Positions 2,981 through 58,517 of a stretch of 64,000 nucleotides of DNA are shown here, in pieces; position 1 is the stretch's first letter; every line of letters starts with the position of its first letter. The stretch is taken from the NCBI GenBank assembly GCA_963758445.1, contig CAVWVR010000005.1:21414-85413 (forward strand). The letters are read 5' to 3'. Source of the stretch: Terriglobia bacterium. GTDB taxonomy: Bacteria; Acidobacteriota; Terriglobia; Bryobacterales; Bryobacteraceae. Made by a program: the position numbers and the translations under genes. A model generated the notes under the pieces. That model saw only the letters and a list, made by a program, of their open reading frames with translations, did no database searches and was not told the origin of the DNA.

Positions 2981-3562
2981 ATGTTCAAAGAGTTAAGAGC
3001 GGGCATACTGATTACCATCGTGTTTACGGTACTGACCGGCCTGGTCTATCCGCTGGCAATTACCGGACTGGCGCAGCTGATTTTTCCGAGACAGGCCAAT
3101 GGAAGCCTGATGGAACGCAACGGCAAAGTGATCGGGTCGGAACTAATCGGCCAAAACTGGACCAAGCCCGAGTACTTTCATCCACGGCTTTCCTCCGCGG
3201 GTAATGGCTACGATGCCACGGCGTCCAGCGGATCAAATCTTGGGCCCACCAACCCTGCTCTTGTCGATCGACTCAACAAGAGCGCTGCCGATTTTCGCAA
3301 AGAGAATCCGGCTTTCACCGGGGCGATACCGGCTGACGCCATTACGGCTTCGGGCAGCGGACTCGATCCGGATATTACTCCCGCGAACGCCGAAGCACAG
3401 GCGGCGCGCGTGGCATCGGCTCGCGGGGCTTCCGTTGACCGCGTACGCAGTCTCATTAGCGCGTACACTAAAAATCGAACCCTGGGGATCATCGGGGAGC
3501 CACGTACGAACGTTTTGAAGTTGAATTTGGCACTCGACAATGAGATCCCGGTTCATCATTAA
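2981..3562 (+). CDS. kdpC: Potassium-transporting ATPase subunit C (KdpC)
   Basis: 193 aa with a single N-terminal TM helix. Typical KdpC sequence, directly downstream of kdpB. Confidence 0.9.
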   Translation: MFKELRAGILITIVFTVLTGLVYPLAITGLAQLIFPRQANGSLMERNGKVIGSELIGQNWTKPEYFHPRLSSAGNGYDATASSGSNLGPTNPALVDRLNKSAADFRKENPAFTGAIPADAITASGSGLDPDITPANAEAQAARVASARGASVDRVRSLISAYTKNRTLGIIGEPRTNVLKLNLALDNEIPVHH

Positions 3563-3568
3563 GAAGCG

Positions 3569-4660
3569 ATGGGCACTCGGGTAATTGCACGTCCCGATCC
3601 GGAAGAGCTGCTGAGGCGGGTCGAATCCGAGGAGCGGGAAGAAAAACGCGGAAGGCTGAAGGTCTTCCTGGGCTACGCGCCGCGCGTTGGCAAATCCCGG
3701 CGCATGCTGGATGAGGGTTGCCGCCGCAAAAAGCGCGGGCAGGATGTCGTCATAGGCGCGCTCCAGAGGAAAGAGAGTGCGGGCACCGGGTGTTATGTGG
3801 GCTCGCTGGAAATGATCCCGCTTCGACCAGTCGATGGCGGAGTGGCGATGGACACCGATGCCATCATTCGGCGTCACCCGACAATTTGCCTGATCGACGA
3901 ACTCGCGTTCGACAATCCGCCGGGCGCGGAGCGTGAGCATCGCTGGCAGGATGTGGAGCATCTGCTGAACAACGGCATCAATGTTGCAACGGCGGTCAAT
4001 CTCCAGCACATTTCCGAACAGCAGAACTGCGTGGAAGCGATTACGTCCAGGAGAGCGCAAAATTCGGTGCCCGAAAAGTTCGTTCGGGACGCGGATGAAA
4101 TCGAGATCGTCGATGTGCCCGCGCAGGACTTGTGTACTGGTCTAGAAAGCGACGAACAACGGGCGCTAAACAGCCGGCAACTATCTGAACTGCGTGAGTT
4201 GGCGCTGCTCCTGGTGGCGGACGTGATTGAGGCGCAACTGTTGCGCTATCTGGACGGGCATGGCGTCCAACATTCCTGGGGAGCTCAGGAGCGAATCCTG
4301 CTTTGCATCGAAACGCAGCCCAAAGCCAAAGCTCTGGTGGAGAGCGGCAAGCGCAACGCAACCCGTTCGCACGGGCAACTGTTCGCGCTCCATGTGGAGG
4401 ACAAAGAACTCAACCGTGAAGCTCGCGAACAGGTTCAGGAGAACCTGGAATTGGCGCGGCGGTTGGGCGCGGAGATTCACGAGGTGAGCAACCCGGACCC
4501 GATCGGCGCAATTATCGATTTCGCCCGCACTAACCGAATAACTCAGATTTTTGTCGGTCATCCGCGGGGGAATAGATGGCTGCACTGGGGAGAACGGCGG
4601 ATCGACCGCCTGATTCGTGAAGCTGAAGGGATGGATGTCCGAATCTTTCCCCAGTCCTGA
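3569..4660 (+). CDS. KdpD N-terminal sensor domain + universal-stress-protein (Usp) domain protein; no histidine-kinase domain
   Basis: The RGRLKVFLGYAPRVGKSRRMLDEG motif is a degenerate KdpD N-domain P-loop. The C-terminal half is Usp-like. No HisKA/HATPase_c motifs (H-box, N/G1/G2 boxes) are present. Confidence 0.8.
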   Translation: MGTRVIARPDPEELLRRVESEEREEKRGRLKVFLGYAPRVGKSRRMLDEGCRRKKRGQDVVIGALQRKESAGTGCYVGSLEMIPLRPVDGGVAMDTDAIIRRHPTICLIDELAFDNPPGAEREHRWQDVEHLLNNGINVATAVNLQHISEQQNCVEAITSRRAQNSVPEKFVRDADEIEIVDVPAQDLCTGLESDEQRALNSRQLSELRELALLLVADVIEAQLLRYLDGHGVQHSWGAQERILLCIETQPKAKALVESGKRNATRSHGQLFALHVEDKELNREAREQVQENLELARRLGAEIHEVSNPDPIGAIIDFARTNRITQIFVGHPRGNRWLHWGERRIDRLIREAEGMDVRIFPQS

Positions 4661-5732
4661 AAGCACAGAGCATAAACGCGGCAAGTTGCGCATCTTTCTG
4701 GGCTACGCCGCGGGTGTGGGAAAAACCTACAAGATGCTCGAAGAGGCGCAGCGGCTGAAGGCAGAGGGTATCGATGTCGTGATTGGCTACTTCGAGCCGC
4801 ATGCGCGCAAGGACACGATTGCGAAGACGCAGGGGCTTGAGACCGTTCCGCGCAAAGCTATTTCATACCGACGCTCGACCTTTGAAGAGATGGACACGGA
4901 CGCAGTCCTTCGGCGCAAGCCTGCGGTCTGCGTTGTCGATGAGTTCGCACACACAAACGTCCCGGGATCGGAGCGCGCCAAGCGGTACGAGGATGTCCAC
5001 GTGCTCCTGGATGCCGGTATTGATGTGCTCACTACGCTGAACGTGCAGCACCTGGAAAGTTTGAACGACCAGGTCTGGCAAGTAACCGGTATTCGCGTTC
5101 GCGAGACCATTCCAGACTGGGTGGTGGAAAAGGCGGACGAAATCGTGATGGTTGACGTGCCGCCGCGAGCGCTCATTCATCGGCTGGAGCGCGGTGTCGT
5201 CTACGGGCACGATAAAGCGCAGCGAGCGCTAGAAAACTTCTTCACCGAGACGAATCTGACGGCCTTGCGCGAACTGGCTCTGCGACAGACGGCGCATCAA
5301 CTGGAAGGCAATATCGACCGCTTGAAGGAGAAGCCTTCGTCGCAGCGGGAACCGAAAAACTCGTCAGAACGCGTGATGATTCAGCTCAACGCCGTGCCGC
5401 AGGCCGCAATGCTGCTTCGGCGCGGAAAACGGCTGGCGGATTATCTTGAAACCGATTGCATCGCCGTCTATGTTGCACGCGACGAACGCTGGTCCGATCT
5501 TTCGCCTGAGCAGCGCGATGTTCTGGAAAAGCAGATGAACTTTGCGAGGAACATGAGGATCGGAGTGGAAACGCTGGTCGGCAAAGACATAGCGGAAACA
5601 CTGACGGACTTCGCACGCCAGCAGCAGGTAACGCAGCTTATCATCCTCCGCGGCATGCCCGATACGCATCGCATTGTGAATAAAGCGCACAATATGGTGG
5701 TTACGGTGATTTCGGAGCGCAAACGGGCTTAG
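4617..5732 (+). CDS. Second KdpD N-terminal/Usp domain paralog (sensor-only, no kinase)
   Basis: RGKLRIFLGYAAGVGKTYKMLEEA is a canonical KdpD N-domain P-loop, and the C-terminal region is Usp-like. It overlaps the end of the preceding paralog. The true start may be the internal ATG near 4635. Confidence 0.8.
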   Translation: MKLKGWMSESFPSPESTEHKRGKLRIFLGYAAGVGKTYKMLEEAQRLKAEGIDVVIGYFEPHARKDTIAKTQGLETVPRKAISYRRSTFEEMDTDAVLRRKPAVCVVDEFAHTNVPGSERAKRYEDVHVLLDAGIDVLTTLNVQHLESLNDQVWQVTGIRVRETIPDWVVEKADEIVMVDVPPRALIHRLERGVVYGHDKAQRALENFFTETNLTALRELALRQTAHQLEGNIDRLKEKPSSQREPKNSSERVMIQLNAVPQAAMLLRRGKRLADYLETDCIAVYVARDERWSDLSPEQRDVLEKQMNFARNMRIGVETLVGKDIAETLTDFARQQQVTQLIILRGMPDTHRIVNKAHNMVVTVISERKRA

Positions 5733-5885
5733 TAGGGAGTCTTCTTTGGATTGGATTGATATTGCGATTAAATGCTGTATCAATTCTCCGTGTGCGACGA
5801 AGCTCTACGACCGGCACAAAGAGGAACCCTCGCTCGATGAATATGAGAAGGTGGGGGTCTGATCAAACTTGACCAGCTGATTCTT

Positions 5886-6497
5886 TTGTTAGTCGGTTGG
5901 GTACTCGGCTTTCCAAGTGCACTCCTACTTGATTGGCTCCGCCGCCTCCTGCGTAGACGTGAGCTGAAGAGAGTCATCAGAACGGAAATGGTTGAGCTGC
6001 AGTACATGATGGCGATGAACGCCTATCTGATGCGCAGCGATGCAGGGCCGCTAACGAATGCCTTTCTCGACTGGATCTGCCCTATTGCCCGAAACTATCA
6101 CGGCCCGGCAGCATCGCCCGAGCTGGCCGACTTCATCGTTCAACTTCGAAACCTATCTGAACAGGAGCGAGAAGCCGTTTTCAAAGCACGTTACAAGGCT
6201 AATCGAGGCTTGTATCCGAAGCAGCAGTGTTTGCCGTTTGTAACAGCCCACTTCGGAGAGCTTTCGGTTTTTCCTTTACAATTCCAAGCGGCCATACTGC
6301 GCGTGAAAGGGCAGCTCGAATTATTCAATCAACACGTTGCTTTTGTACAAAAACGGCACGACATGACGTTTACCGTTACGAAGGAACAGTACGAACGCGT
6401 TGCAAACGACTTCCGCGACGGAATCGCCCAACTCGCCTACATGGCGGAGCAAATCGCAACCGCAATTTCGGATCAAGCCATTTTGAAAGGCAGGTGA
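5886..6497 (+). CDS. Hypothetical protein with an N-terminal TM helix, in a low-GC pocket
   Basis: 203-aa ORF with a TTG start and no recognisable motifs. Local GC is about 40-48% versus about 60% in the flanks. Confidence 0.35.
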   Translation: MLVGWVLGFPSALLLDWLRRLLRRRELKRVIRTEMVELQYMMAMNAYLMRSDAGPLTNAFLDWICPIARNYHGPAASPELADFIVQLRNLSEQEREAVFKARYKANRGLYPKQQCLPFVTAHFGELSVFPLQFQAAILRVKGQLELFNQHVAFVQKRHDMTFTVTKEQYERVANDFRDGIAQLAYMAEQIATAISDQAILKGR

Positions 6498-6663
6498 ACT
6501 GACGATAGTACAGGTAATCCCGCTAGAGCAGGAATGTCGTACACACCTCAAATGCCGTTTGAACAAGTAAGGCCGAGTCGAGCCCCGCCAAGTCCGGGGC
6601 GGCTCAGGGGAAGGGATGCCATTGAGGCTGACGTTTGAAAACGCGCGAGCACCGAAATTGATT

Positions 6664-6694
6664 GATATAACAGCTTTCTCATAGAGTCGGCAAC
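6664..6694. promoter_or_regulatory. Motif copy A, GATATAACAGCTTTCT-N9-GGCAAC, 28 bp upstream of the MFS transporter start
   Basis: An exact 16-mer plus GGCAAC at identical spacing is repeated at 9053-9083. Confidence 0.5.
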
Positions 6695-6721
6695 CTGTCC
6701 TATTAGGTTCCATCCAACTTT

Positions 6722-7921
6722 GTGAAGGAGCTTTGGATGGCAACTGCCGAACTCACACTACAAGATGCTCAGACGACAACTTCGAACGCCGCCTGGTGGG
6801 CGGTGGTCTCGCGATTCTTTCTGCACGGCCTAATCGTGTCCACGTGGGTATCGCGGATTCCCACCATTCAAAGTGCGCTAGGGTTGACGAACGCCACTCT
6901 CGGACTCAGTCTGCTGGGAACGGCTGTCGGGTCGGTGGTCGCAATTCCCGCGACGGGTTGGCTGGTGGGGCGCATCGGCAGCAAGCGTGTCGCTGGCCTA
7001 AGCACGGTTGGCTTCGCGCTCGCTTTGGTTGCTCCGGCTTTTGCCTACAACGGACTTACTCTTTTCCTGTCTCTGATTCTCTTCGGGGCAATGGCGGGAG
7101 CCAACGACGTTTCCATCAATGCGCAAGGAGTTGCGCTCGAACAGGCACTGGATACTCCCGTGATGTCGCGTTTTCACGCGATGTTCAGCATCGGGGGAAT
7201 GATGGGCGCGGCCGCAGGTGGGTTGATTGCCTTGCGCGAGGTTTCCCCACGGCCTCACTTCCTGGTACTGTCGGTCGTATTCGTGCTGGCCGGCATTCTT
7301 ACCGCGCCCTATCTGTTCGAAGCGCACGATCACAAAACAGAGCAGACGCATTCGATGCGATTGCGCCACATTCCTTTGGTGCTGGTGGTGCTTGCTGTCA
7401 TCGGCACGTGCATGTTTCTCTCAGAGGGCGCGATGGCGGATTGGTCAGGCGTCTACTTGAAGCAGGCTCTGCATGCCGACCACGCGCTTGCGGCTTCCGC
7501 CTACGCTGTTTTCTCATCCGGCATGGCGTTGTTCCGGCTTCTCGGCGACGGCATTACGAAGCGCCTTGGGCCGGTGCGCACGGTTCGCGCAGGCGCGTTG
7601 ATCGCTGCTACCGGCCTGACACTCGCGCTAACGTCCCACTCCGCAATGGCAGCTCTCCCGGGATTTGCACTCACGGGCGCAGGATTCTCCGTTATTGTTC
7701 CGCTGGTGTTCGCGGCCGGCGGTAGAGTCAAACAGATTCCCAGCGGGTTCGGCATCGCCATGGTGAGCGGTTCCGGTTACTTCGGCTTCTTATTCGGGCC
7801 GCCGCTCATCGGTCTGCTTGCGCAGGCAACATCGTTGCGCCTGACTTTGTTCCTGGTGGTTGCGCTCACGCTGGTAGCGGCGACGTTGGCGAATGCAGTG
7901 CGCCCGGCGGATGCGCAGTAA
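6722..7921 (+). CDS. MFS transporter
   Basis: 399 aa with about 12 predicted TM helices and a glycine-rich MFS-type composition. Confidence 0.8.
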   Translation: MKELWMATAELTLQDAQTTTSNAAWWAVVSRFFLHGLIVSTWVSRIPTIQSALGLTNATLGLSLLGTAVGSVVAIPATGWLVGRIGSKRVAGLSTVGFALALVAPAFAYNGLTLFLSLILFGAMAGANDVSINAQGVALEQALDTPVMSRFHAMFSIGGMMGAAAGGLIALREVSPRPHFLVLSVVFVLAGILTAPYLFEAHDHKTEQTHSMRLRHIPLVLVVLAVIGTCMFLSEGAMADWSGVYLKQALHADHALAASAYAVFSSGMALFRLLGDGITKRLGPVRTVRAGALIAATGLTLALTSHSAMAALPGFALTGAGFSVIVPLVFAAGGRVKQIPSGFGIAMVSGSGYFGFLFGPPLIGLLAQATSLRLTLFLVVALTLVAATLANAVRPADAQ

Positions 7922-7927
7922 TCACGT

Positions 7928-9043
7928 CTAGGCGGCGTCAATTTCGGCGCCGCACGATTTACGGACGATCAACTCGCCGTCAAGCAAGACCTCTCGCGGC
8001 GGCAGATGAGGGCTACGGATGCGGTCCAGCATGGTGCGTAAGGCGGCTTCGCCAATCTCGCGAGTCGGCTGGCGAATCGTGGTCAGCGGCACGGGCAAAA
8101 GACTTGCGTACGACACATCGTCTATGCCGACAATCCGGATATCCTCCGGAATCTTCATCTTCCTCGCGAGAAAGACCTGCATGAGCTGGCCGGCCACGCG
8201 GTCGTTCACGCAAACGAAGGCATCTATCGCGTCGCGCTTGCCTTTGCCGCCAGACAGCTTGGGATTCTCCTGGTCCGCTTGCGCCGCCTCGACCATGGGC
8301 CGCAAACCATGGACGACCAGCGCTTCTTTGTATCCGGAAAGCCGATCCTCAATGCTGGATGCGATGCCGTGATGACCGAGAAAACCAATGCGCCTGCACC
8401 CCAGATTGATCAGGTGCTCTGTCGCGACATAAGCGGCCTGTCGATTGTTCAATCCAACCAGGTCCGGACGATTGCGTTCCGGAGTTTTCGAAGCGCGCCG
8501 GTCAAGCAGCACAACTGGAATTTTGGCCTCCCGAAGAGCGGAGAGAATGCGCGCGTTCACCTTCGTTGCCTCGCGTTCATATTCCAAGGGCGCGAAGAAG
8601 ACGCCGGACACTTGTTTGGATATGAACTGTTGGCACAGGCTCCAGGCCTGCTGCGGCTTAGTCGTCTGGGTTCCGGCATTTCCCCACAGCAGCGCGTGCT
8701 CAGGGGCTTCGGGAGCGCGCGCGATGCCCTGACATATCGGCTCGAATATCTCTGTTTCGCCGAGATCGGGTATTAACAATCCGAACAGATGCGGCCGGGG
8801 CTGGTGCTGAAGATCGCGAACATAGGTGCCGGATCCGGCGACGCGGTCCACCAACTGCAGGTTCTGAAGCTCGCGAATGGCACGCCCGACGGTGATGCGC
8901 GAAGCACCGGATTTGTTGACCAGCGCGGCCTCGCTTGGGAGTTTCTGACCCGGCTTATAGCGCTCCGCAAGAATATCGGCTTTGAGTGATTCAAACAGTT
9001 CCTGATACTTCGGAATAGGCCGCTCTGAACGCGTACTACGCAT
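7928..9043 (-). CDS. Transcriptional regulator with a GntR-type N-terminal HTH and a LacI/periplasmic-binding-protein-like C-terminal sugar-binding domain
   Basis: N-terminal YQELFESLKADILAERYKPGQKLPSEAALVNKSGASRITVGRAIRELQ is a GntR HTH. The remainder is a PBP-like fold typical of LacI-family ligand domains. Confidence 0.8.
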   Translation of the reverse strand: MRSTRSERPIPKYQELFESLKADILAERYKPGQKLPSEAALVNKSGASRITVGRAIRELQNLQLVDRVAGSGTYVRDLQHQPRPHLFGLLIPDLGETEIFEPICQGIARAPEAPEHALLWGNAGTQTTKPQQAWSLCQQFISKQVSGVFFAPLEYEREATKVNARILSALREAKIPVVLLDRRASKTPERNRPDLVGLNNRQAAYVATEHLINLGCRRIGFLGHHGIASSIEDRLSGYKEALVVHGLRPMVEAAQADQENPKLSGGKGKRDAIDAFVCVNDRVAGQLMQVFLARKMKIPEDIRIVGIDDVSYASLLPVPLTTIRQPTREIGEAALRTMLDRIRSPHLPPREVLLDGELIVRKSCGAEIDAA

Positions 9044-9052
9044 GCGGAATCA

Positions 9053-9083
9053 GATATAACAGCTTTCTAGCCGCTACGGCAAC
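9053..9083. promoter_or_regulatory. Motif copy B, GATATAACAGCTTTCT-N9-GGCAAC, 10-40 bp upstream of the GntR-type regulator start and about 160 bp upstream of the HAD gene
   Basis: Same 16-mer and GGCAAC spacing as at 6664-6694, on the same strand. Confidence 0.5.
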
Positions 9084-9241
9084 TGAGGCAGTGCATTTCC
9101 ATCTAAAATGTAGGAGAGGACGTTGCACCTCGTAAACGATCCTTCCTTCCCTGTTCGCTAGGAAGCGCGCCGGAGACTGTTTAGCCCGGCGACTCACTGC
9201 CAGCGTTTCTCTTTTCAATTTTTAAAAAAAGGAGTATCTTT

Positions 9242-10054
9242 ATGACCCCCTCAGGGAAACAATATCTATTCGTTAGCGATTTCGACCAGACGTTGAGCTT
9301 CAACGATTCCGGCCTGGTTCTAAGTAAGATGATCGGCGTTGACGGCTTTGAAGAGCGTGTGAAAGGTCTGGCCAACCTCCACCTTGTGCAACAGGGCGGC
9401 GAACTCGCCTACTTGCTGCTGCACGACCCGCAATTCCGCTGCGTTCGCAGGGACCAGCTTGCAGCCGTGGGTAAACAGATTCGTCTCAAAGAGAATATCG
9501 ATCTACTCTCTGACGCGCTCAAAGATCTGAACGGCAATGAGTTCAAGTTCCACGTGGTTTCGGCGGCACCGGAAGAAGTTGTGAAGTCGGCGCTCGAAGG
9601 CATTGTTCCGGCCGATCACATTCACGGCACGCGCTTCCGCTATAACGATGCGGGTGAAATCGAAAGCATCGTTCGGCTACCGGCCGGGTACGGCAAGGTT
9701 GCGGTGGTGGATGAACTTAGAACGCAGATGAAAATCGGACATGACAGCGTTGTCTACGTCGGCGACGGCAGTTCGGACGTTCACGTCATGCTGCACGTGA
9801 ATCGCCTGGATGGCTTAACCATCGCGGTCTCGGAGAATAAGTACCTGACTCCGATCGCGAAACGGACCATTCTCAGTGAGGATGCGTCCAGCGTTCTAGT
9901 GCCCATGCTGGAAGATCTGTTTGGCTGGACTGCTGCGCAGATTCGCACTTTTTTCCAGGCACGAGGCTTGACGCTTCAGGAATGGGATAAGGTTCGCACC
10001 GATACGATTACATTGGGCCGCACGGCCACACCGGTGGCGGCGGCGATTAACTAA
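9242..10054 (+). CDS. HAD-superfamily hydrolase (HAD-IB/phosphoserine-phosphatase-like)
   Basis: N-terminal FVSDFDQTL is HAD motif I (DxD). YVGDGSSDV is motif IV. An AGGAG ribosome-binding site precedes the ATG. Confidence 0.7.
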
Positions 10055-10061
10055 GTGAAAG

Positions 10062-10988
10062 CTACTGCCGCCTCCGCGCAGCGGTAGCAGACGGGAATAG
10101 GGTCCTATCCGCCAGCGCGACTTGCGCCTTTCGCGCCTGTTCTGACCCGGGGTACTTCTGAATCAGCGCGCGCAGTTCCTGTACGGCCTGCGTGCGCTGC
10201 CCGCTCTTGGCCAGGGCCACGCCTTTCATGTAAGCCGCATCTTTGGTTCGAGGATTCTGGGGATAGCGCTCCAACACCGCATCAAACGCGTGAACAGCTC
10301 CCTTGTAATCGGTTTGGTTATACGCGATCTCACCCAGATAGAACTGGGCGCTGGCGGCATATTCGGTATTCGGAAAATAAGTCAGATACTGCTGATATTC
10401 CTGCACGGCTAACGGAACATTCCCGGTCTGTTGATCGCGTCGGGCATCGGTGAACAATTGGGCTGCACTTACGCCCGCGGGCGGAGCGCTTGCCCCGGGT
10501 TGGCCGGTTCCAGGTGACGAACTCAGGCCCGGAGCGCCCATCGCGCTAGGAGGGCCTGTCTGGGAGCCAGGAGCCGCCGGTGGATTCTGCATGATCTGGA
10601 TCTGATTCTTCACGTCAGTAATTTTGGCGTCCATGCGCTCCAGTCGCGCGCCCAAATCGGCTAGCGCATCACGCAAGGAGCGTACATCCTCACTGGTCGC
10701 GTCAACCTTAGTGCCCAGATTAGTCACCGGTCCAAGTGAACTGACGACTGTGTTCCGCAGCACGTCTTGCATGCCCGCAACCTGGTCCGCGGTGTGGCGC
10801 GTGTCGGCCGCCATCTGGCCCAATGCACCATTCAGCACATCGATCTTCGACTTCAAATCGTCCTGCTGCTTCTGCAGAGTGTCGAATCGATCTTCCAGTG
10901 CACGCTGTAAAGCCAGCAGATCCTTGTTTACCGCAAAAGAGAAGCCGGAAAAAGTCAATGCCAGAACGGCCAGACGCAGAAATTTCAT
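10062..10988 (-). CDS. ybgF: Tol-Pal system protein YbgF/CpoB (coiled-coil + TPR)
   Basis: Signal peptide, an N-terminal coiled coil and C-terminal TPR repeats (YQQYLTYFPNTEYAASAQFYLGEIAY...). It is the last gene of the tol-pal cluster. Confidence 0.75.
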   Translation of the reverse strand: MKFLRLAVLALTFSGFSFAVNKDLLALQRALEDRFDTLQKQQDDLKSKIDVLNGALGQMAADTRHTADQVAGMQDVLRNTVVSSLGPVTNLGTKVDATSEDVRSLRDALADLGARLERMDAKITDVKNQIQIMQNPPAAPGSQTGPPSAMGAPGLSSSPGTGQPGASAPPAGVSAAQLFTDARRDQQTGNVPLAVQEYQQYLTYFPNTEYAASAQFYLGEIAYNQTDYKGAVHAFDAVLERYPQNPRTKDAAYMKGVALAKSGQRTQAVQELRALIQKYPGSEQARKAQVALADRTLFPSATAARRRQ

Positions 10989-11089
10989 TGAGTTAACTCC
11001 TCATGAGAGAGGGACGGATGAGAGCCGTCCCTGTTTCACGCTTGTCTTCAGTGTAAGTGAAGCAGCGGATATTTCTCCGTACGCAGGCG

Positions 11090-11857
11090 CTACTGGCCAG
11101 CCGAGAAATGGTCTCGCCGATTACGCGCGTAGCAATCCTCGCTAGCGTCCGTGCAGATGGGACGTTCTTTGCCGTAGCTGATGGTCTTCAGCTTGTCGGC
11201 GGGAACTCCCATGCCAACCAGCGCTTCCTTGGCTGCCGATGCGCGTCGATCTCCCAGCGCCAAATTGTATTCAGCCGACCCGCGCTCGTCGCAATTGCCT
11301 TCAATCTGAACAATGAAGTTCGGGTCCATGGAGAAGATCTGCTTCAGCGCGGTCGCATCCTGCTGAAGAATGGGCTGATCTTCGGCGCGGACATCGCTCT
11401 TGTCGTAATCGAAATGAATATCCTGCACCTGCTGTTGCAAGATCTGCACGGCAGTTAATTGGTTGGTCGGCGCTGCCACGGGGGCGGGCGGAGGAGCCGT
11501 GCTGACAGTAATGGTCGCTTCCGCATCTGCTGTGCCGCCCGGGCCAGTTGCGCTCAGATGATAGGTGGTTGTCTGAGTTGGATAAACGGCTCTACGGCCA
11601 TTCGGGCTGACTGGGCCGATCCCTTCGATCGAAACGTTCGTTGCGTCGGTAACGCTCCAACGCAGAGAGGATGGCTGGCCTGCATTGACCGTCGTCGGCT
11701 CCGCGGTGAAGTAATTGATAGCCGGCTTATTGGCCACAGTCGTCGGCGTGGGCGCCGGCGGTGGAGGTGGTGGCGGTGGCACTTTCTTGTGACATCCAGC
11801 CGCGAAAACCAACAGGAGCGTTGACAAAGCAATCGGCAAAGCTCTGCGTTGTGCCAT
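11090..11857 (-). CDS. pal: Peptidoglycan-associated lipoprotein Pal (OmpA-family)
   Basis: Lipobox LVFAAGC, a proline-rich linker and a C-terminal OmpA-like domain (NFIVQIEGNCDERGSAEYNLALGDRRA). The chosen start is an internal ATG at 11857 that gives the lipoprotein signal peptide. Confidence 0.85.
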   Translation of the reverse strand: MAQRRALPIALSTLLLVFAAGCHKKVPPPPPPPPAPTPTTVANKPAINYFTAEPTTVNAGQPSSLRWSVTDATNVSIEGIGPVSPNGRRAVYPTQTTTYHLSATGPGGTADAEATITVSTAPPPAPVAAPTNQLTAVQILQQQVQDIHFDYDKSDVRAEDQPILQQDATALKQIFSMDPNFIVQIEGNCDERGSAEYNLALGDRRASAAKEALVGMGVPADKLKTISYGKERPICTDASEDCYARNRRDHFSAGQ

Positions 11858-11903
11858 GGTAATGAGTCGATCCTCTACTTTCATTTGACTTCTAGCTACT
11901 TTA

Positions 11904-13286
11904 CTACTGCTCCGCATTAACCCAGACCGGTTTCTCGTTGCTACCGCTCTGCGTGAGCGGATGCTTGCCCGTTCCGTCCGCATTCATGACCCAGATCTGC
12001 GACTGCCGGCCGCGCTTGGAGGCATAGACAATATGCGCTCCATCCGGGGCAAAACCGGGATTTTCATTTCTTCCCTCGTTAGACGTCAATTGGGTCACTT
12101 GCTGATTTCCCACATCCATCACGAAGATGTTGTAATTGCCCGGTTCGAATCCCTTGGTCCAGGCGAACGCGATATGGTCGCCATCGGGACTCCACGCTGG
12201 ATTCGTCGCCTCGCCCGTTCCCGCGGAGATCCGTTGCACGTCCGTTCCTTCGACGCTCATATGATAGATCTGCGGCAATCCGCTGCGCCCGGAGACATCC
12301 ACCAAGTCAGTCCCGGTTTTCGGATTGATCTTCGGTTCCACCTCAATCACACCTGAGGCGGTCAAGCGCCGCAATCCGCTGCCATCTGCGTTGGCCGTAA
12401 AGAGCTGCGCATTTCCCCCCGCCGCGGTGGACGAGAAGACGACGCGTTTAGAATCCGGCGTGAACGTGACAAACGCATTCATAGACGCCCGTTGATTGTA
12501 AAACGGCAGCTTGCGCCCGCTATCGAGTGAGAACATCTGAATCGCCGGAAAGCCCACTGCCCAGGTGGTGAACGCAACAATGCGACCGTCGGGCGAGGCA
12601 GAGGGAAACGTCGAAATCGAATGATAATTGGTCAATTGCCGCTGAGCGGTGCCGTCCCAGTTCATCACCCAGATCTCTTTGGAACCGGAACGGTCGGATA
12701 CAAAGACGATCCTGGTTCCCACTAAGCTCTTGCCGCCGAACTGCGCCAATATATCAGCCGCATAGCGGTGCCCGGCATCGATAGCGCCTTCGCGCGTCAT
12801 GGGCGCAGTGTAGATCTTCCCGAATACTTGCGCCTGCTGTAGCGTGGCGATTGAAGTGGACGTGCTGTAGAACCAGCCGAAGGCGACAAACATGCCTCGA
12901 TCCTCGGCGCCGTAGCCGATGCCCAAGTAATTGGCCGAGACGGGCGGGAGACTCCAGTCCGTCAGGCGATTTGCCATCATTGTCACCGCGCCTCGGCTAG
13001 GCGGAGCAACCCCGGCAATCAAATCCGAAGGCTGCTGCGGAACTTGCAACGGGTAAAACGTCTTCGGAATAAAGTTGATCAAAGGCGAGCCTTCCAGATC
13101 GCTTCTGACAGTCTGATTGAAGTCGCCGATATATGCCGTCGCCGCCCCAGAGGCGCGGAAATCAGTCACCGCAATATGCGGCTTGCCGGGATTCTTTTCA
13201 ATGGTCCCCTGAACCTGTTGCCCGAGTAGCCAGCCCAGGCCGCTAACGGCGAGAAGTGCAATTGCAAGTATGAATGTGCGCATCAC
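11904..13286 (-). CDS. tolB: Tol-Pal system beta-propeller protein TolB
   Basis: 460 aa with a signal peptide, a TolB N-domain and C-terminal beta-propeller repeats (SPDG motifs). Confidence 0.9.
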   Translation of the reverse strand: MMRTFILAIALLAVSGLGWLLGQQVQGTIEKNPGKPHIAVTDFRASGAATAYIGDFNQTVRSDLEGSPLINFIPKTFYPLQVPQQPSDLIAGVAPPSRGAVTMMANRLTDWSLPPVSANYLGIGYGAEDRGMFVAFGWFYSTSTSIATLQQAQVFGKIYTAPMTREGAIDAGHRYAADILAQFGGKSLVGTRIVFVSDRSGSKEIWVMNWDGTAQRQLTNYHSISTFPSASPDGRIVAFTTWAVGFPAIQMFSLDSGRKLPFYNQRASMNAFVTFTPDSKRVVFSSTAAGGNAQLFTANADGSGLRRLTASGVIEVEPKINPKTGTDLVDVSGRSGLPQIYHMSVEGTDVQRISAGTGEATNPAWSPDGDHIAFAWTKGFEPGNYNIFVMDVGNQQVTQLTSNEGRNENPGFAPDGAHIVYASKRGRQSQIWVMNADGTGKHPLTQSGSNEKPVWVNAEQ

Positions 13287-13298
13287 GTAAGTTGAAAA

Positions 13299-14108
13299 TC
13301 AACGTAAGTTAAAAGTGAATTGAGCGGAGATAGAGTTCTCCGTTATTTGCGGCGGAAGCGGCGGCAGGGGAGTAGCCTGATATACCGCCCGCAGCGCCGT
13401 GTTGTCGATGGACGGATTGCCGCTGCTCTGAACTATCTGCGGATTCCGCACGCTGCCGTCGCGCATGATGATGAAGGCGACGATAGCGGGCGCCATCTGC
13501 GTGCGAGCCGCCAGGCCATTTGTGTTCCAGTTCTGCGCGATCCGGTCGCGGATCATCTGCGCATACCAACCCAGCCGATTGCTGCCTAACGGCGTATTAG
13601 GCCCAACTCCGACCTGGCCGCCGCCGCTGGGTCCGCCATACATTGGGTTCGAAAGCGCCTGCTGTTGCGCGAACACCTGGTTTCGTGGTGTCGGCTGCTG
13701 ATAGGTCTGTTGCTTGGTTGGACGCGGCGCTTCCTTCTTGATTTTGTCGGGAAGCTCAAATGCGTTCTTGTCCGGAACGGGCTGCTTCTTCTCCAACGTT
13801 TGTTTGGCGGGAGCAGTGGGAACCTGCGATTCTGTGTCATTCGCTACCGGATTCGGCGGCGCTTCGTGCCGAGGAATGGGGATGTTGTGTACAGGCGAAA
13901 CGGAATACGCCGGTCCGCCGGCCGAATTCACATCGCCCAACGTTTCCGGGTGCTGATTTAGCCAGAACCAGCCAAAGAACAATAGCGCAACCACGCCGCC
14001 ATGCACCAGCAGAGACCCGAAAAACGGAGTCCCCAGCGGATCTCGTTCGTCCAGTAAATCGAGCGGTTCAGCCATTGTTTTAGCGCCGCTGCCGCGCCAC
14101 TTGATCAA
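13299..14108 (-). CDS. tolA: TonB-family energy-transducer protein in the TolA position
   Basis: N-terminal TM helix, Pro/Gln-rich spacer and a C-terminal TonB/TolA-like domain. Located between tolR and tolB. Confidence 0.65.
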   Translation of the reverse strand: MIKWRGSGAKTMAEPLDLLDERDPLGTPFFGSLLVHGGVVALLFFGWFWLNQHPETLGDVNSAGGPAYSVSPVHNIPIPRHEAPPNPVANDTESQVPTAPAKQTLEKKQPVPDKNAFELPDKIKKEAPRPTKQQTYQQPTPRNQVFAQQQALSNPMYGGPSGGGQVGVGPNTPLGSNRLGWYAQMIRDRIAQNWNTNGLAARTQMAPAIVAFIIMRDGSVRNPQIVQSSGNPSIDNTALRAVYQATPLPPLPPQITENSISAQFTFNLR

Positions 14109-14523
14109 TGGGCGCGGTGACCATCTTCACCTCGAACTTCGCCTCGCCGAGTTCCGCCACAATCTGCGCGATCGGATCCCAAGGCGTTTGCTTGTCGGCA
14201 CGAACATAGACGGCCGTGGCCCCGCGGAATCTCTGCCGAATCGCATCTGCCATTTCGTGGATGTTTACCGGCTTCTCGTTGAGCAGCGTCTCCCCGTTTT
14301 TGTTGATGTTAATGACGGGCAGATCCTGCGTGGTGTTCTGGACGCGCCGCACCTGCGGCACCTGTATGTCGAGACCGAACTCCATCACGTTTGCCGTGAT
14401 CATGAAGATGACCAGCAACACCAGGACCACGTCAACCAGGGGAACAATGTTGATTTCCGACATGACGGTTGGCCCGCCAAATCGTCGTCCCCGCCTGCCG
14501 CCTTCGCTGAAAGAAAAAGCCAC
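14080..14523 (-). CDS. tolR: Biopolymer transport protein TolR/ExbD
   Basis: EINIVPLVDVVLVLLVIFMITA is the ExbD/TolR signature. Confidence 0.85.
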   Translation of the reverse strand: MAFSFSEGGRRGRRFGGPTVMSEINIVPLVDVVLVLLVIFMITANVMEFGLDIQVPQVRRVQNTTQDLPVININKNGETLLNEKPVNIHEMADAIRQRFRGATAVYVRADKQTPWDPIAQIVAELGEAKFEVKMVTAPIDQVARQRR

Positions 14524-14526
14524 GAT

Positions 14527-15204
14527 TTAGCCGCCGAAATCCCGCTCCGCCAGATTCTGAAACTCAATGGCGAAGTCTTCCATACGCGTGCCCATCTCCT
14601 TGATGCGTGTCCCGAAGACGTTGTAGAAGATAGCCGCTGGAATGGCTGCTGCCAGACCAATAGCCGTCGTCACCAGCGCTTCTGAAATGCCCGGTGCGAC
14701 AGCGCGCAGGCTCGCGCTTCCCGCACTTCCGAGCCCCTGGAACGCATCAATGATTCCCCACACCGTTCCGAAGAGACCGATGAACGGCGACACCGAAGCG
14801 ACCGTCGCCAGCCAGTTCATGTTCATCTCCAGCTTAGTGACTTCTTCGCTTATTCCTAACTGCAAACTTCGTTCGATGGCAGGTTTATTTACCAATGCGC
14901 CGCGTTGCTTGATCTGCCTTTCAATCTCGCCATAGCCGAAATCGAACACTGCCACCAGCGGCGCAGAAGTGAACTGCTCACTGGCCATGGCTACCGCTTG
15001 CAAGTTACCAGCCTTTCTGAAAGCACGCAGAAAATTTCGATTCTCGCGCCGGGCGCGGCCAAAAATGCTGCCCTTGGAAAACGCGATCGTCCAAGAGAAC
15101 AGCGAAAAGAGAATCAGAATGACGATGACTGCTAACGGAATGGGTCGTAAGTTTTGAATGAGGTCCCACAGGGAAAGATCTGCAGGAAGCAGCACAAAGG
15201 GCAA
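14527..15204 (-). CDS. tolQ: Proton-channel protein TolQ/ExbB (MotA family)
   Basis: 225 aa with three TM helices. MotA/TolQ/ExbB family, first gene of the tol-pal cluster. Confidence 0.85.
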   Translation of the reverse strand: MPFVLLPADLSLWDLIQNLRPIPLAVIVILILFSLFSWTIAFSKGSIFGRARRENRNFLRAFRKAGNLQAVAMASEQFTSAPLVAVFDFGYGEIERQIKQRGALVNKPAIERSLQLGISEEVTKLEMNMNWLATVASVSPFIGLFGTVWGIIDAFQGLGSAGSASLRAVAPGISEALVTTAIGLAAAIPAAIFYNVFGTRIKEMGTRMEDFAIEFQNLAERDFGG

Positions 15205-53351: not shown

Positions 53352-53389
53352 CGGTGCTATGCTGATGTCTGGAAATGCTCATAGCACCG
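53352..53389. promoter_or_regulatory. 10-bp perfect inverted repeat CGGTGCTATG-N18-CATAGCACCG spanning the imuA start codon
   Basis: Left arm at 53352-53361 and right arm at 53380-53389. The ATG of imuA at 53375 lies inside the spacer. Confidence 0.5.
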
Positions 53390-54061
53390 GCCCGGGAAGT
53401 TCATGCCCCAACCCCGCACGTTCTAGCTGACCTACGCGAAAAAATCGATGCTCTGGAGGGTGCGCCGCGCCGCTTCGCCCGCACCATTCCGATCTCCGGC
53501 CTTATTGATGAAGCCCTGCCGGCACATGGCTTGCCCCTCGGCTGTGTCCATGAACTAAAGGGCAATCCCGCCAGCGTCATTGCCTTTGCCGGGTTGCTTT
53601 CCGCCCGCATCCCGCGCCAGGGCGCTGTCCTTTACATCGAGCCCTCCCGCTCGTTCTACCCGCTAGGGCTTCTGCCCTACGGCGTCAACCTCCAGCACTG
53701 GATTCATGTCCGCGCCCGCCGTCCCAAGGATCTGGTCTGGACCATCCTCGAAGCGCTCCGCTGTCCGCAAATTAATGCCGTCCTGGCCGTCCTTCCCTCC
53801 GCCGACCTCACTTTCTCGCGCCGTCTGCAGCTCGCAGCTGAGAGCAGCGGCGCAACCGGTTTCTTGTTCGGAAATATGGCCTCCGCCATCACGCGCTGGC
53901 GGGTTTCTTCTACAAGGAACTTCGGCTGGTCGCTTGAACTTCTTTATAGCCGGGGCGGACGTCCGGGCAATTGGCAGGTGAGTTGGCGCAACGGCCAACT
54001 TGAAACTGCACGCTCTATTCACCGCGGGCAGTTGGTCGCGAAAGAAGCCCTGGCAGGATGA
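53375..54061 (+). CDS. imuA: ImuA (SulA/RecA-fold protein of the imuA-imuB-dnaE2 mutagenesis cassette)
   Basis: 228 aa, gene order immediately upstream of imuB and dnaE2. ImuA-like sequence (LADLREKIDALEG...). Confidence 0.75.
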   Translation: MLIAPAREVHAPTPHVLADLREKIDALEGAPRRFARTIPISGLIDEALPAHGLPLGCVHELKGNPASVIAFAGLLSARIPRQGAVLYIEPSRSFYPLGLLPYGVNLQHWIHVRARRPKDLVWTILEALRCPQINAVLAVLPSADLTFSRRLQLAAESSGATGFLFGNMASAITRWRVSSTRNFGWSLELLYSRGGRPGNWQVSWRNGQLETARSIHRGQLVAKEALAG

Positions 54062-54062
54062 T

Positions 54063-55379
54063 ATGTCTCGGCGTCTGCTTTGTCTATACCTGCCTGACAG
54101 TCCAGCCGAGGTCAAGCAGCGCGTTCTCCACTGGTGCAACCGCTATTCCCCAATCGTGGCTGACGACGGCTCTGGCGGCATCGTTCTAGATGTCACTGGC
54201 TGCGCGCATCTCTTCGGCGGTGAAGAAGCTCTACTCAACGATGTGCAAACCCGCATCCGCCGCTCTGGCCATCGCATTCGCGGCGCAATCGCCGACACTT
54301 TAGGCGCAGCCTGGGCATTGGCCCGCTATTCCCGGCAAGTCATCATCACCGGCAGCGAGTTGCCGCAAGCTTTGAATCCTTTGCCTGTCGAAGCCTTGCG
54401 CCTGCCCGAAGAAGTGACTCGCGCCCTCCGCCGCGTCGGCCTCAACACCATCGCGGCATTTCAAAAAGTGCCCCGCCAGGCGTTGGTCACGCGCTTTGGT
54501 TCCGGCATCTTGTTGCGCTTGGATCAGGCTTTCGGTCAAGCCGAAGAAACCATCACGCCCTATCGCCGTCCTGCACCTTATTCGGCCCGGCGCATGCTCC
54601 CCGAGCCCATCGCAACCACCCCAGCCGTCGAATATGTTCTGCTCGATCTACTCAAAGAGATTTGCACGCGCTTGCAGAAGGAGCATGCCGGTGCGCGCCG
54701 CCTCAATCTCGATTGCTATCGAGTGGACGGAGTGGTCTGCGCCTGCGGCATCAGCACTTCCAAACCGGTTCGTTCCGTCACTCACTTGATGCGCCTCTTT
54801 ACGGAACGGCTTGGCAACATCGACGCTGGCTTTGGCATCGAAACTCTCGTCCTGTCTGTCCCGAATTTTGATCGAGCAGACCCCGGGCAGCTCACGCTTC
54901 CGCAATTCGATCCCGACAGGCTGGAGAACACCCAAGCACTGGATGAATTGATCGACCGCTTGGGCGCGCGCCTCGGTTTTCAGCATGTCACTCGTCTTCG
55001 CATACGCGAAAGCTTACTGCCCGAATATTCCATCGAGTTCCAGCCCGTCACTGCGCCGCAAGCTCCCAGCGCGCTTTGGCCCGAATACCGCGTCCGCCCC
55101 GTCCATTGGGTCGATCCGCCCATGCGCATTGAAGTCGCAACCATCCATCCCGGCGGTTCGCCCGTGCAGTTTCGCATGGGACAAGATCTTCGTCGCATCA
55201 TGAAATCCGAAGGCCCCGAACGATTAACGCCCGAATGGTGGCGCCTCGAACCATTGAAATGGCAAATACGCGATTACTACCGCATTGAAGACGACCGCGG
55301 CTGCCGCTTCTGGATCTTCCAGGAACACGTCGAACTATCTTCCGCCAGACTTTGGTTTCTGCGCGGCCATCTTGCTTAA
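54063..55379 (+). CDS. imuB: ImuB (Y-family-polymerase-like, catalytically inactive scaffold)
   Basis: MSRRLLCLYLPD... Y-family fold without the catalytic acidic triad context. Positioned between imuA and dnaE2. Start at the internal ATG, 2 nt after the imuA stop. Confidence 0.85.
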   Translation: MSRRLLCLYLPDSPAEVKQRVLHWCNRYSPIVADDGSGGIVLDVTGCAHLFGGEEALLNDVQTRIRRSGHRIRGAIADTLGAAWALARYSRQVIITGSELPQALNPLPVEALRLPEEVTRALRRVGLNTIAAFQKVPRQALVTRFGSGILLRLDQAFGQAEETITPYRRPAPYSARRMLPEPIATTPAVEYVLLDLLKEICTRLQKEHAGARRLNLDCYRVDGVVCACGISTSKPVRSVTHLMRLFTERLGNIDAGFGIETLVLSVPNFDRADPGQLTLPQFDPDRLENTQALDELIDRLGARLGFQHVTRLRIRESLLPEYSIEFQPVTAPQAPSALWPEYRVRPVHWVDPPMRIEVATIHPGGSPVQFRMGQDLRRIMKSEGPERLTPEWWRLEPLKWQIRDYYRIEDDRGCRFWIFQEHVELSSARLWFLRGHLA

Positions 55380-55391
55380 GCCAGGCATCGC

Positions 55392-58517
<3,126 letters not shown>

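Follow-up and report, generated by a model that had tools for sequence, protein, structure and literature searches.

The locus considered here raises the question of why a kdpABC operon should end in two consecutive genes for the sensor part of KdpD, neither of which encodes a histidine kinase. It lies in a stretch of 64,000 nucleotides (the window) which, by analogy with related loci, appears to hold the 3' end of a kdp operon of split-KdpD type from a soil acidobacterium of the family Bryobacteraceae, the kinase half being seen in its relatives. We consider it slightly more probable than its negation (about 0.55) that the second of the two proteins, D2, is an atypical serine kinase and that the first, D1, is its pseudokinase-like partner within such an operon. 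The features of the locus are the following:

1-832, + strand: 3' part of kdpA (ORF 77-832), the left edge of the window lying inside the gene
845-2971, + strand: kdpB, P-type ATPase subunit (Pfam E1-E2_ATPase and Hydrolase)
2981-3562, + strand: kdpC (Pfam KdpC, E=1e-73), 6-nt gap to D1
3569-4660, + strand: D1, soluble KdpD-N and Usp protein, divergent paralogue, 363 aa (Pfam KdpD and Usp)
3671-3697, + strand: variant P-loop of D1, GYAPRVGKS
3896-3901, + strand: Walker B DE of D1
4625-4660, + strand: D1/D2 junction, SD-like GAAGGGA at 4625-4631 followed by the D2 ATG at 4635
4635-5732, + strand: D2, soluble KdpD-N and Usp protein, canonical paralogue, 365 aa (Pfam KdpD)
4701-4730, + strand: P-loop of D2, GYAAGVGKTY
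4938-4943, + strand: Walker B DE of D2
5181-5183, + strand: Arg of D2 equivalent to E. coli R190

Residues 308-582 of KdpA from a related locus (L002) match positions 2-826 of the window with 84% identity (tblastn), and whatever lies upstream of kdpA (kdpF, and a kinase or a regulator if present) is cut off by the left edge. D2 was listed as an ORF of 371 aa with a GTG start (4617-5732), and the ATG at 4635, which yields 365 aa and an N-terminus reading MSES, agrees better with the aligned orthologues. The gaps separating kdpA, kdpB, kdpC and D1 are 12, 9 and 6 nt. The D2 ATG and its SD-like motif are located within the 3' end of D1, an overlap of 26 nt which suggests translational coupling; overlaps of 23-26 nt with a GGAGG/GAGGG motif are also present in L003, L006 and L002. 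Given the short gaps, this conserved overlap with its SD-like motif, and promoter and terminator matches in 3400-6800 that did not exceed chance, the five genes are predicted to be transcribed together as one operon. The DNA 3' of D2 (5733-5885) does not code for protein, and the ORF that follows matches no family.

Domain content of the two proteins

D1 and D2 were confirmed to be sensor-domain-only KdpD paralogues without a kinase domain, as the original prediction had stated; both ORFs are present after kdpABC, with 363 and 365 aa, and the two peptide motifs quoted at the time were found in them. Pfam KdpD (PF02702, cut-off 26.1 bits) matched D1 with 185.7 bits (E=9e-55, profile positions 1-209 of 210) and D2 with 315 bits (E=3e-94). 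The Usp domain that had been proposed to follow was matched weakly by Pfam in D1 (E=2e-4) and was not detected by it in D2. The profile-profile alignment of the two families (hhalign) extends over the full length, Usp region included (328 columns, probability 100%), and the AlphaFold (AF2) model of D1 (pLDDT 81) resembles the KdpD USP domain 7JI4 with a TM of 0.84. The same model gave a TM of 0.78-0.81 against 2R8R, a PDB entry that was also matched by sequence, at 2.5e-28 for D1 and at 4e-69 for D2 over residues 14-227. Identity to residues 1-395 of E. coli KdpD averages 42% for D2 and 33% for D1.

With regard to the kinase part, profiles for HisKA, HATPase_c and DUF4118 matched neither protein, and neither has a predicted TM segment or a hydrophobic window above 1.6. 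The profile of full-length KdpD (NF007793/PRK10490, cut-off 1123 bits) matched D1 and D2 at positions 6-369 only, with 213 and 318 bits, which places both outside that family. NF038185 (KdpD_non_kinase) gave 233 bits for D1 and 354 bits for D2, both below its curated cut-off of 550 bits. Metagenome annotations routinely label these genes "sensor histidine kinase KdpD", a domain that neither protein contains.

The arrangement could also be an artefact or a product of decay, in which a full-length kdpD was broken by a frameshift or an assembly error, or a duplicate became a pseudogene. Apart from its odd look, the frameshifted kdpB or kdpA genes of long-read relatives (L001, L027 and L050) are what would favour this explanation. 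However, both ORFs are intact and of a length typical of their families, the arrangement is repeated in more than 100 independent assemblies, both genes show a pN well under their pS, and no frame of the window holds a remnant of a kinase domain. When all six-frame ORFs of the 64 kb were searched with profile HMMs of the split kinase and regulator, the best score was 3.9 bits, and tblastn for these two proteins across the same 64 kb returned nothing. Neither a HisKA or HATPase_c domain hidden by a frameshift nor a full-length kdpD downstream was thus present, and we rejected this explanation as scarcely credible. A pair of 228 and 459 aa encoded at 53375-55379 had resembled a regulator and a kinase and was recognised as part of an imuA-like/imuB/dnaE2 cassette.

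Conservation of the gene pair and the split kinase

The two genes had been regarded as an unusual tandem duplicated pair, a view that could not be upheld. D1 and D2 are 33% identical and therefore do not stem from a recent duplication, and their pairing is the rule in Bryobacterales, an order-level trait of this group of Acidobacteriota: D2 comes after D1 in 69 of 78 genome loci, and of the 37 metagenome loci of the D2 family, 34 have D1 in front of D2. The D1 type was detected in 162 or more species genomes, almost all from Bryobacterales. The pairing has exceptions, such as kdpABC-D1 loci that are without D2 (L012, L020 and L054). Fusions of two KdpD/Usp modules were also found, numbering 19 among the best 150 representatives at 50% identity and occurring in Armatimonadota, Chloroflexota and Bacillota. 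In 13 of these fusions a canonical module is combined with a degenerate one, in 4 both modules are canonical, and in P0121, P0122 and P0124 a D1-like module is followed by a D2-like module. Among the papers covered by a search, none dealt with KdpD paralogues in tandem or with a pseudokinase of the KdpD type, and the pairing of a canonical with a degenerate KdpD-N/Usp protein, recurrent across Bryobacterales, appears to be previously undescribed.

The lack of a kdpE in view, which had likewise been considered unusual, is an edge effect, as the window begins inside kdpA. The one contig on record with an identical D1 is 3.7 kb long, and no record matches the KdpB of the window exactly. In the nearest relative (L006, 75% D1 identity), the genes directly upstream of kdpA encode a kinase of DUF4118-HisKA-HATPase_c architecture and a regulator of OmpR type (Response_reg/Trans_reg_C). 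The same two genes hold this position in 16 other loci, giving 17 of the 37 that have kdpA and enough upstream sequence; in 18 of the 37 they were not found within about 4.5 kb upstream. Kinase and KdpE genes adjoin the operon in L006, L011, L018, L029 and others. These relatives back the earlier suggestion of a kinase encoded elsewhere, and 31 of 37 Acidobacteriota have been tabulated as 'KdpD/Usp + TM/GAF/DHpCA' (PMC11018627 Suppl. Data 2). The membrane histidine-kinase half (DUF4118-HisKA-HATPase_c) and KdpE would then be separate genes controlling transcription and, judging by their position in the nearest relative, would be located just past the left edge of the window.

A division of labour without any D1-D2 complex could be envisaged. 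As a regulatory N-terminal domain detached from the split histidine kinase and working in trans, D1 would tune the kinase/phosphatase activity of the latter towards KdpE, and D2 alone would see to the post-translational inhibition of KdpB. HK-RR-D1 operons devoid of D2 and kdpABC (L063, L064, L071, L073 and L076), of which that of L073 is bordered by unrelated genes, are consistent with such a role, as is the invariant P-loop of D1. Nevertheless, D2 too is found in operons of this kind (HK-RR-D2; L092, L101 and L108), so the linkage to a kinase is not specific to D1, which weakens the case for D1 as the specific partner of the split kinase. In addition, D1-D2 pairs occur without a kinase or regulator nearby, as in L032, and the natural D1-D2 fusions and the conserved overlap of stop and start codons point to a physical pair. 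We consider this division of labour unlikely.

Catalytic residues and proposed roles of D1 and D2

The KdpD N-domain has been known since 2024 as an atypical serine kinase (ASK) that inhibits KdpB at the serine of its TGES motif, S162 (PMC11018627). The isolated N-domain of E. coli KdpD is sufficient for this phosphorylation, which is abolished by mutation of Walker A, D109 or E110 and almost abolished by mutation of the clamp pair W39/R190, and a short Deinococcus KdpD/Usp protein also phosphorylates E. coli KdpB (PMC11018627). The term 'stress-sensing module' used in the original prediction is vaguer than this present knowledge of the domain, and the direct action on KdpB that it had suggested has backing from the published activity and from the TGES motif of the window KdpB. 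The latter protein is 65% identical to E. coli KdpB, with a conserved block around TGES, and the serine of this motif is Ser182 (codon 1388-1390), which equals E. coli S162 and is preceded by E181, the equivalent of E161. The E-S of TGES in the A domain, expected of an ASK substrate, is present, and Ser182 is the presumed target of the KdpD-type serine kinase.

Residues were compared in E. coli KdpD numbering over 64 D1 and 58 D2 family sequences. In the D2 family, G30, G36, K37, T38, D109, E110, H113 and R190 are unchanged in 55-58 of the 58 sequences, and the position of W39 is aromatic. D2 of the window carries GYAAGVGKTY, DE and the arginine corresponding to R190, the residues expected of an ASK, and its Usp region shows an E. 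coli-like RxxxR-x8-xxAVY motif. D2 thus keeps every essential ASK residue and, on residue evidence, is catalytically intact; we infer its kinase activity and its target from the experiments on the E. coli and Deinococcus proteins.

The P-loop of D1 had been described as a degraded Walker-like loop. This does not apply to the loop itself, since GYAPRVGKS is invariant across the family and still fits G-x5-GK[ST], but degeneration is found elsewhere. D1 of the window has R at the position of W39 and G at that of R190, so that the adenine clamp is gone. In the family, the W39 position is occupied by L, F, V or R, R190 is kept in 17 of 64 sequences, the H113 position is variable, E110 is replaced by G or Q in 23 of 64 (about a third), and 14 residues are deleted after the R190 region (hhalign), in D1 of the window as well. 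The Walker A lysine and D109 are retained in D1, and the window protein itself retains the Walker A Lys/Ser and the Walker B Asp-Glu, so that it may have residual or altered catalysis; of the features expected of an ASK, the W39/R190 pair is lacking and E110 is not conserved in the family. The pN of D1 is 0.14-0.16 against a pS of about 0.7 (saturated), values comparable to those of kdpC, and within-family identity is 59% for D1 and 63% for D2. By these measures, D1 is degenerate yet under strong purifying selection. The effect of losing the clamp is read from mutants of the E. coli protein, and nucleotide could be bound in another way by D1.

Alternatively, serine kinase activity could reside in both D1 and D2, which would differ in their inputs or targets, for instance with two signals being integrated on KdpB, or with D1 acting on a new substrate through a remodelled nucleotide pocket. 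The GK[S] and Asp-Glu of the window D1, the strong selection on this gene and the four fusions with two canonical modules would be in line with this. However, the clamp pair whose mutation nearly abolishes E. coli activity is gone from most D1 sequences, and the segment after R190 is deleted. Moreover, the catalytic glutamate is Gly or Gln in 23 of 64 D1 sequences with overall conservation undiminished, an argument for selection on something other than catalysis in D1. Two active kinases seem to us rather improbable.

The pair would also resemble the c-di-AMP-controlled short KdpD of Deinococcus geothermalis and Bacillus if its Usp domain bound c-di-AMP and thereby switched on the serine kinase, with transcription under a c-di-AMP riboswitch instead of KdpDE. 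In other organisms c-di-AMP stimulates short KdpD/Usp proteins, and a gene for a diadenylate cyclase is present in most of the species concerned (PMC11018627); in addition, the modelled Usp domain of D1 is structurally closest to the c-di-AMP-bound KdpD USP 7JI4. In contrast, a search of the 64 D1 and 58 D2 sequences for the S. aureus-type Usp motif SxS-x20-FTAxY gave no match, also when the pattern was relaxed, the motif of D2 being of E. coli type. No Rfam family, the c-di-AMP (ydaO/kimA-type) riboswitch included, reached its gathering score in the kdp loci of L006, L018, L029 and L002, which represent the leaders of relatives. The relatives do have a kinase and a regulator, and a diadenylate cyclase is missing from 29 of the 37 Acidobacteriota in the published survey (PMC11018627 Suppl. 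Data 2). With no such Usp motif found, nor a riboswitch in the four related loci, c-di-AMP control was set aside as very unlikely.

The reading we prefer is that of D2 as the kinase and D1 as its pseudokinase-like partner. When K+ is sufficient, D2 would phosphorylate Ser182 in the TGES motif of KdpB through its Walker A/B site, and this would shut off pumps already in the membrane. D1, an ancient paralogue that has kept both folds and the P-loop, most likely phosphorylates nothing; its role would be that of a non-catalytic, regulatory partner, produced in equal amounts with D2 through translational coupling. The two probably form a heterodimer, as suggested by gene fusion, translational coupling and co-occurrence, and D1 may also connect the pair to the separate kinase half.

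More tentatively, the pair may be an obligate kinase/pseudokinase heterodimer with the degenerate D1 as its signal-receiving or switching element. If so, D1 would supply the control that is given elsewhere by c-di-AMP (short KdpD) or by TM/GAF domains (full-length KdpD), in a phylum mostly without c-di-AMP, and the combination of a canonical with a degenerate module would have arisen more than once in evolution, in the form of tandem genes in Bryobacterales and of fusions in the other three phyla. In a bolder form, D1 would reverse or gate the otherwise 'irreversible' serine phosphorylation of KdpB. A conserved, translationally coupled pair of an intact and a degenerate protein offers a natural, separable test of asymmetric dimers and of signal entry, with relevance above all for the short KdpD proteins of organisms that lack c-di-AMP, i.e. 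most Acidobacteriota.

Comparison with known systems

Full-length E. coli KdpD, which joins a serine kinase and a histidine kinase in tandem, has KdpD-N and Usp domains homologous to D1 and D2, which differ from it in having no TM, GAF, DHp or CA domains. Truncated N-terminal KdpD proteins are indeed known from Deinococcus and cyanobacteria, as the original prediction had stated (PMC5716572, PMC11018627). The KdpD-like non-kinase sensor of Bacillus type (NF038185; truncated KdpD of B. thuringiensis, PMC6488665) shares the two-domain architecture, the length and the position after kdpC. However, D1 and D2 score below the cut-off of that family, and the Bacillus systems use a c-di-AMP riboswitch and are without KdpE.

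With DgKdpD of Deinococcus geothermalis (Q1J2K3; Silberberg et al. 2024, PMC11018627) the pair shares the make-up of a soluble KdpD-N and Usp protein, a length of about 365-390 aa and a gene position after kdpC. The Walker A/B, aromatic and arginine residues of DgKdpD recur in D2, and the TGES target in KdpB is conserved. The differences are that two tandem proteins are present here, one of them degenerate, and that the c-di-AMP-type Usp motif is missing; given this and the lack of the cyclase in most Acidobacteriota, the input is probably unlike that of DgKdpD.

Two KdpD/Usp units without a kinase domain also characterise the class 'KdpD domain, Usp domain x2', which comprises 86 species (80 Bacillota, 4 Nitrospirota and 2 Cyanobacteriota) and appears in a supplementary table only, the main text being silent on it (PMC11018627 Suppl. 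Data 2). The fused proteins described above, among them that of Sporolactobacillus (P0130), are probably members of this class. In contrast to the present pair, this class includes no Acidobacteriota and no split kinase, and its canonical/degenerate asymmetry has gone unremarked.

The split KdpD systems of D. radiodurans (kdpBAC-kdpD-N, PMC5716572), Anabaena and Alicyclobacillus likewise have the N-terminal half downstream of the pump genes, and the TM/kinase half and KdpE are separate, as they are next to the operon in relatives of the window. The kinase and regulator of D. radiodurans are divergent, whereas those of the relatives are co-oriented with the operon, upstream of kdpA. Furthermore, there is a single KdpD/Usp chain in the published split class, against two paralogous ones in Bryobacterales.

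D1 and D2 as kinase-less KdpD paralogues

The original prediction, that kdpABC is followed in the window by two KdpD paralogues (D1 and D2) comprising only the sensor domain, was confirmed by domain matches, by the absence of kinase and transmembrane parts, and by a model of D1. The Pfam KdpD profile (PF02702) is spanned entirely by both proteins (E = 9e-55 for D1 and 3e-94 for D2), and D1 gives a weak Pfam Usp match. In NCBIfam, the non-kinase KdpD-like model NF038185 aligns with both, as does full-length KdpD over its first ~370 positions only, in each case with scores far under the curated cut-offs. Domain-profile searches found no HisKA, HATPase_c or DUF4118 in either protein, and neither contains any hydrophobic stretch: Kyte-Doolittle means over 19 residues peak at 1.32 in D1 and 0.85 in D2, compared with 2.07 in a genuine split KdpD kinase. 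D1 and D2 share 33% identity along their entire length, and profile-profile comparison of their families aligned 328 columns, the Usp half among them, at a probability of 100%. The AlphaFold model of D1 (mean pLDDT 81) shows two alpha/beta domains separated by a long helix, the first superposing on the KdpD N-terminal crystal structure 2R8R (TM 0.78-0.81), which D2 matches by sequence (4e-69), and the second on the KdpD USP domain 7JI4 (TM 0.84). Metagenome pipelines systematically mis-annotate such ~365-aa proteins as "two-component system sensor histidine kinase KdpD", a name referring to a domain that they lack.

The kdp genes of the window and their downstream flank
Window start to 832, + strand: kdpA, 3' part
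845-2971, + strand: kdpB
2981-3562, + strand: kdpC
3569-4660, + strand: D1 ORF, 363 aa
4635 or 4617 (start) to 5732, + strand: D2 ORF, 365-371 aa
5886-6497: ORF, no Pfam or NCBIfam match
6722-7921: MFS transporter
7928-9043, - strand: GntR regulator with periplasmic-binding domain
9242-10054: HAD hydrolase
10062-15204: tol-pal cluster

Gaps of 12, 9 and 6 nt separate kdpA, kdpB, kdpC and D1, and the D1 and D2 ORFs overlap: the D2 start codon lies within the 3' end of D1 (overlap of 26 nt), just after GAAGGGA. A 23-26-nt overlap with a GGAGG-like motif also occurs in three related loci (L003, L006 and L002). A promoter/terminator scan around the gene pair gave no match above chance. The four genes between D2 and the tol-pal cluster (within 5733-10061) look like an insertion, as the tol-pal genes directly follow D2 in L003; GC falls to 0.51 at the edges of this segment.

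Conservation of the pair and location of kinase and regulator

D1 homologues number thousands, the best 120 all having 355-396 aa, and when one genome per species was scanned with an alignment of the D1 family, at least 162 of these genomes contained the D1 type. The best 80 are nearly all Bryobacterales, Bryobacteraceae or Solibacteraceae MAGs, the nearest being L006, a Bryobacteraceae MAG (75% identity). The tandem arrangement is conserved at the level of the order, since D2 directly follows D1 in 69 of the 78 genome loci with enough downstream sequence, and D1 directly precedes D2 in 34/37 evaluable metagenome loci of the D2 family. The remoter D2-like matches, all devoid of D1, comprise either a single KdpD-N gene with a separate kinase gene (~610 aa) after it or a full-length KdpD of ~900 aa. 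Other arrangements are kinase-regulator-D1 lacking D2 and kdpABC (five loci: L063, L064, L071, L076 and L073, the last situated between glnE and a GH57 gene), kinase-regulator-D2 (L092, L101 and L108), kdpABC-D1 lacking D2 (L012, L020 and L054) and D1-D2 standing alone (e.g. L032). In some Bryobacterales, D1 and D2 are non-adjacent, and one of them instead lies behind a split kinase and its regulator, apart from kdpABC, a sign that the pair can be divided between two loci. One metagenome contig (L124:2-2772) has the consecutive genes D2, D1 and D2, perhaps two D1-D2 pairs in tandem. On long-read MAG contigs (L001/L010, L027, L036 and L050), kdpA, kdpB and kdpC are broken into several tblastn pieces, probably through nanopore homopolymer frameshift errors rather than real pseudogenes.

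The lack of kdpE, initially regarded as notable, is most probably an edge effect, as we infer for this genome, the window being cut inside kdpA with the upstream flank of the operon outside it. Searched by tblastn with E. coli KdpD/KdpE and with a split KdpD kinase and its regulator, the 64 kb gave no match, and profile HMMs for the kinase (from 28 split kinases) and for the regulator (from 28 sequences), run unfiltered, scored no more than 3.9 bits on any six-frame ORF of the window. In L006, the genes directly upstream of kdpA, co-oriented with it, encode a DUF4118-HisKA-HATPase_c protein (471 aa) and a Response_reg/Trans_reg_C protein (233 aa). Of the 37 loci that include kdpA and extend 9 kb or more upstream, 17 contain kinase and regulator and 18 lack them within reach (~4.5 kb upstream of kdpA). 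A pair of suitable size at 53375-55379 was rejected, as it belongs to an imuA-like/imuB/dnaE2 cassette. This damage-inducible mutagenesis cassette (53375-58517) comprises an imuA-like gene with no Pfam match, imuB (IMS_C) and dnaE2 (DNA_pol3_alpha, PHP).

Catalytic residues and probable physical pairing

The KdpD N-domain phosphorylates KdpB at S162 (TGES motif), inhibiting KdpFABC at high K+; the isolated domain suffices, and activity requires each of three elements: Walker A (G-x5-GKT), the W39/R190 pair at the adenine, and D109/E110 of Walker B (Silberberg et al., PMC11018627). The target motif is kept in the KdpB of the window (ITGES182APV). Aligned to E. coli KdpD, the D1 family (64 sequences) and the D2 family (58 sequences) differ exactly at the catalytic positions.

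Residues at KdpD positions (E. coli numbering)
G30, G36, K37 (Walker A): D2 invariant; D1 invariant as GYAPRVGKS; window D1 GYAPRVGKS
T38 (Walker A): D2 invariant T; D1 S 61, T 3; window D1 S
W39 (adenine clamp): D2 Y 51, F 2, W 2; D1 L, F, V, R, others; window D1 R
D109 (Walker B): D2 and D1 invariant; window D1 D
E110 (catalytic Glu): D2 invariant; D1 E 41, G 21, Q 2; window D1 E
H113 (conserved in D2): D2 invariant; D1 variable; window D1 F
R190 (adenine clamp): D2 invariant; D1 R in 17 only; window D1 G

The profile alignment also places a 14-residue deletion in D1 after the R190 region. Two D1 sub-lineages lack different essential residues: the kdpABC-linked one, to which the window D1 belongs, no longer has the adenine pair, and the other retains R190, carries Phe/Tyr at position 39 and is missing the catalytic Glu. 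Despite these losses, D1 is not decaying: its non-synonymous divergence from the closest orthologues (0.14-0.16) is far below the saturated synonymous divergence (~0.7), as in D2 and kdpC. Identity among members is 59% in the D1 family and 63% in the D2 family.

Gene fusion, translational coupling and mutual co-occurrence together point to a physical D1-D2 pair. Among the best 150 matches of an exhaustive D1 search against 1.8 billion cluster representatives, 19 (within P0121-P0200) are fusions of 600-824 aa in which the KdpD-N/Usp module is present twice in full; they come from Armatimonadota, Chloroflexota, Bacillota and others, including metagenome bins. Family HMM scores place a D1-like before a D2-like module, as in the gene order, in P0121, P0122 and P0124. 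In 13/19 fusions, a canonical module is joined to a degenerate one, with either of them leading, and in P0136, P0148 and P0151 the degenerate module has lost even the Walker A lysine.

A proposed kinase-pseudokinase pair and known KdpD systems

Residue patterns read through E. coli mutagenesis, together with comparative genomics, lead us to propose that D2 would act as the kinase, with D1 as a pseudokinase-like regulatory partner. The controlling signal is probably not c-di-AMP, given that the S. aureus-type motif SxS-x20-FTAxY (definitions from PMC4686210) was found in 0/64 D1 and 0/58 D2 Usp domains, also with a relaxed pattern, and that four related kdp loci contain no riboswitch or other Rfam family. 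The E. coli-like motif RxxxR-x8-xxAVY, also defined in PMC4686210, occurs in 39/58 D2. Diadenylate cyclase is missing in 29/37 Acidobacteriota surveyed, and c-di-AMP stimulates the short KdpD/Usp of Deinococcus geothermalis, which phosphorylates E. coli KdpB (PMC11018627); a 365-aa truncated KdpD with a c-di-AMP riboswitch is known from Bacillus thuringiensis (PMC6488665).

Split KdpD was described earlier in Deinococcus radiodurans (PMC5716572). A survey of 5495 species found KdpD/Usp alone in 922, KdpD/Usp with a separate TM/GAF/DHpCA kinase in 140, including 31/37 Acidobacteriota, and "KdpD/Usp x2", a class on which its main text is silent, in 86 (Bacillota, Nitrospirota, Cyanobacteriota) (PMC11018627). 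The D1-D2 arrangement is real and well conserved, and most of it is explained by known biology: a split-KdpD kdp operon that retains a short KdpD/Usp serine kinase after the pump genes. The undescribed part is the second chain, D1, an ancient, selected and catalytically degenerate paralogue beside a canonical kinase, an asymmetry that also recurs in fused proteins of other phyla.
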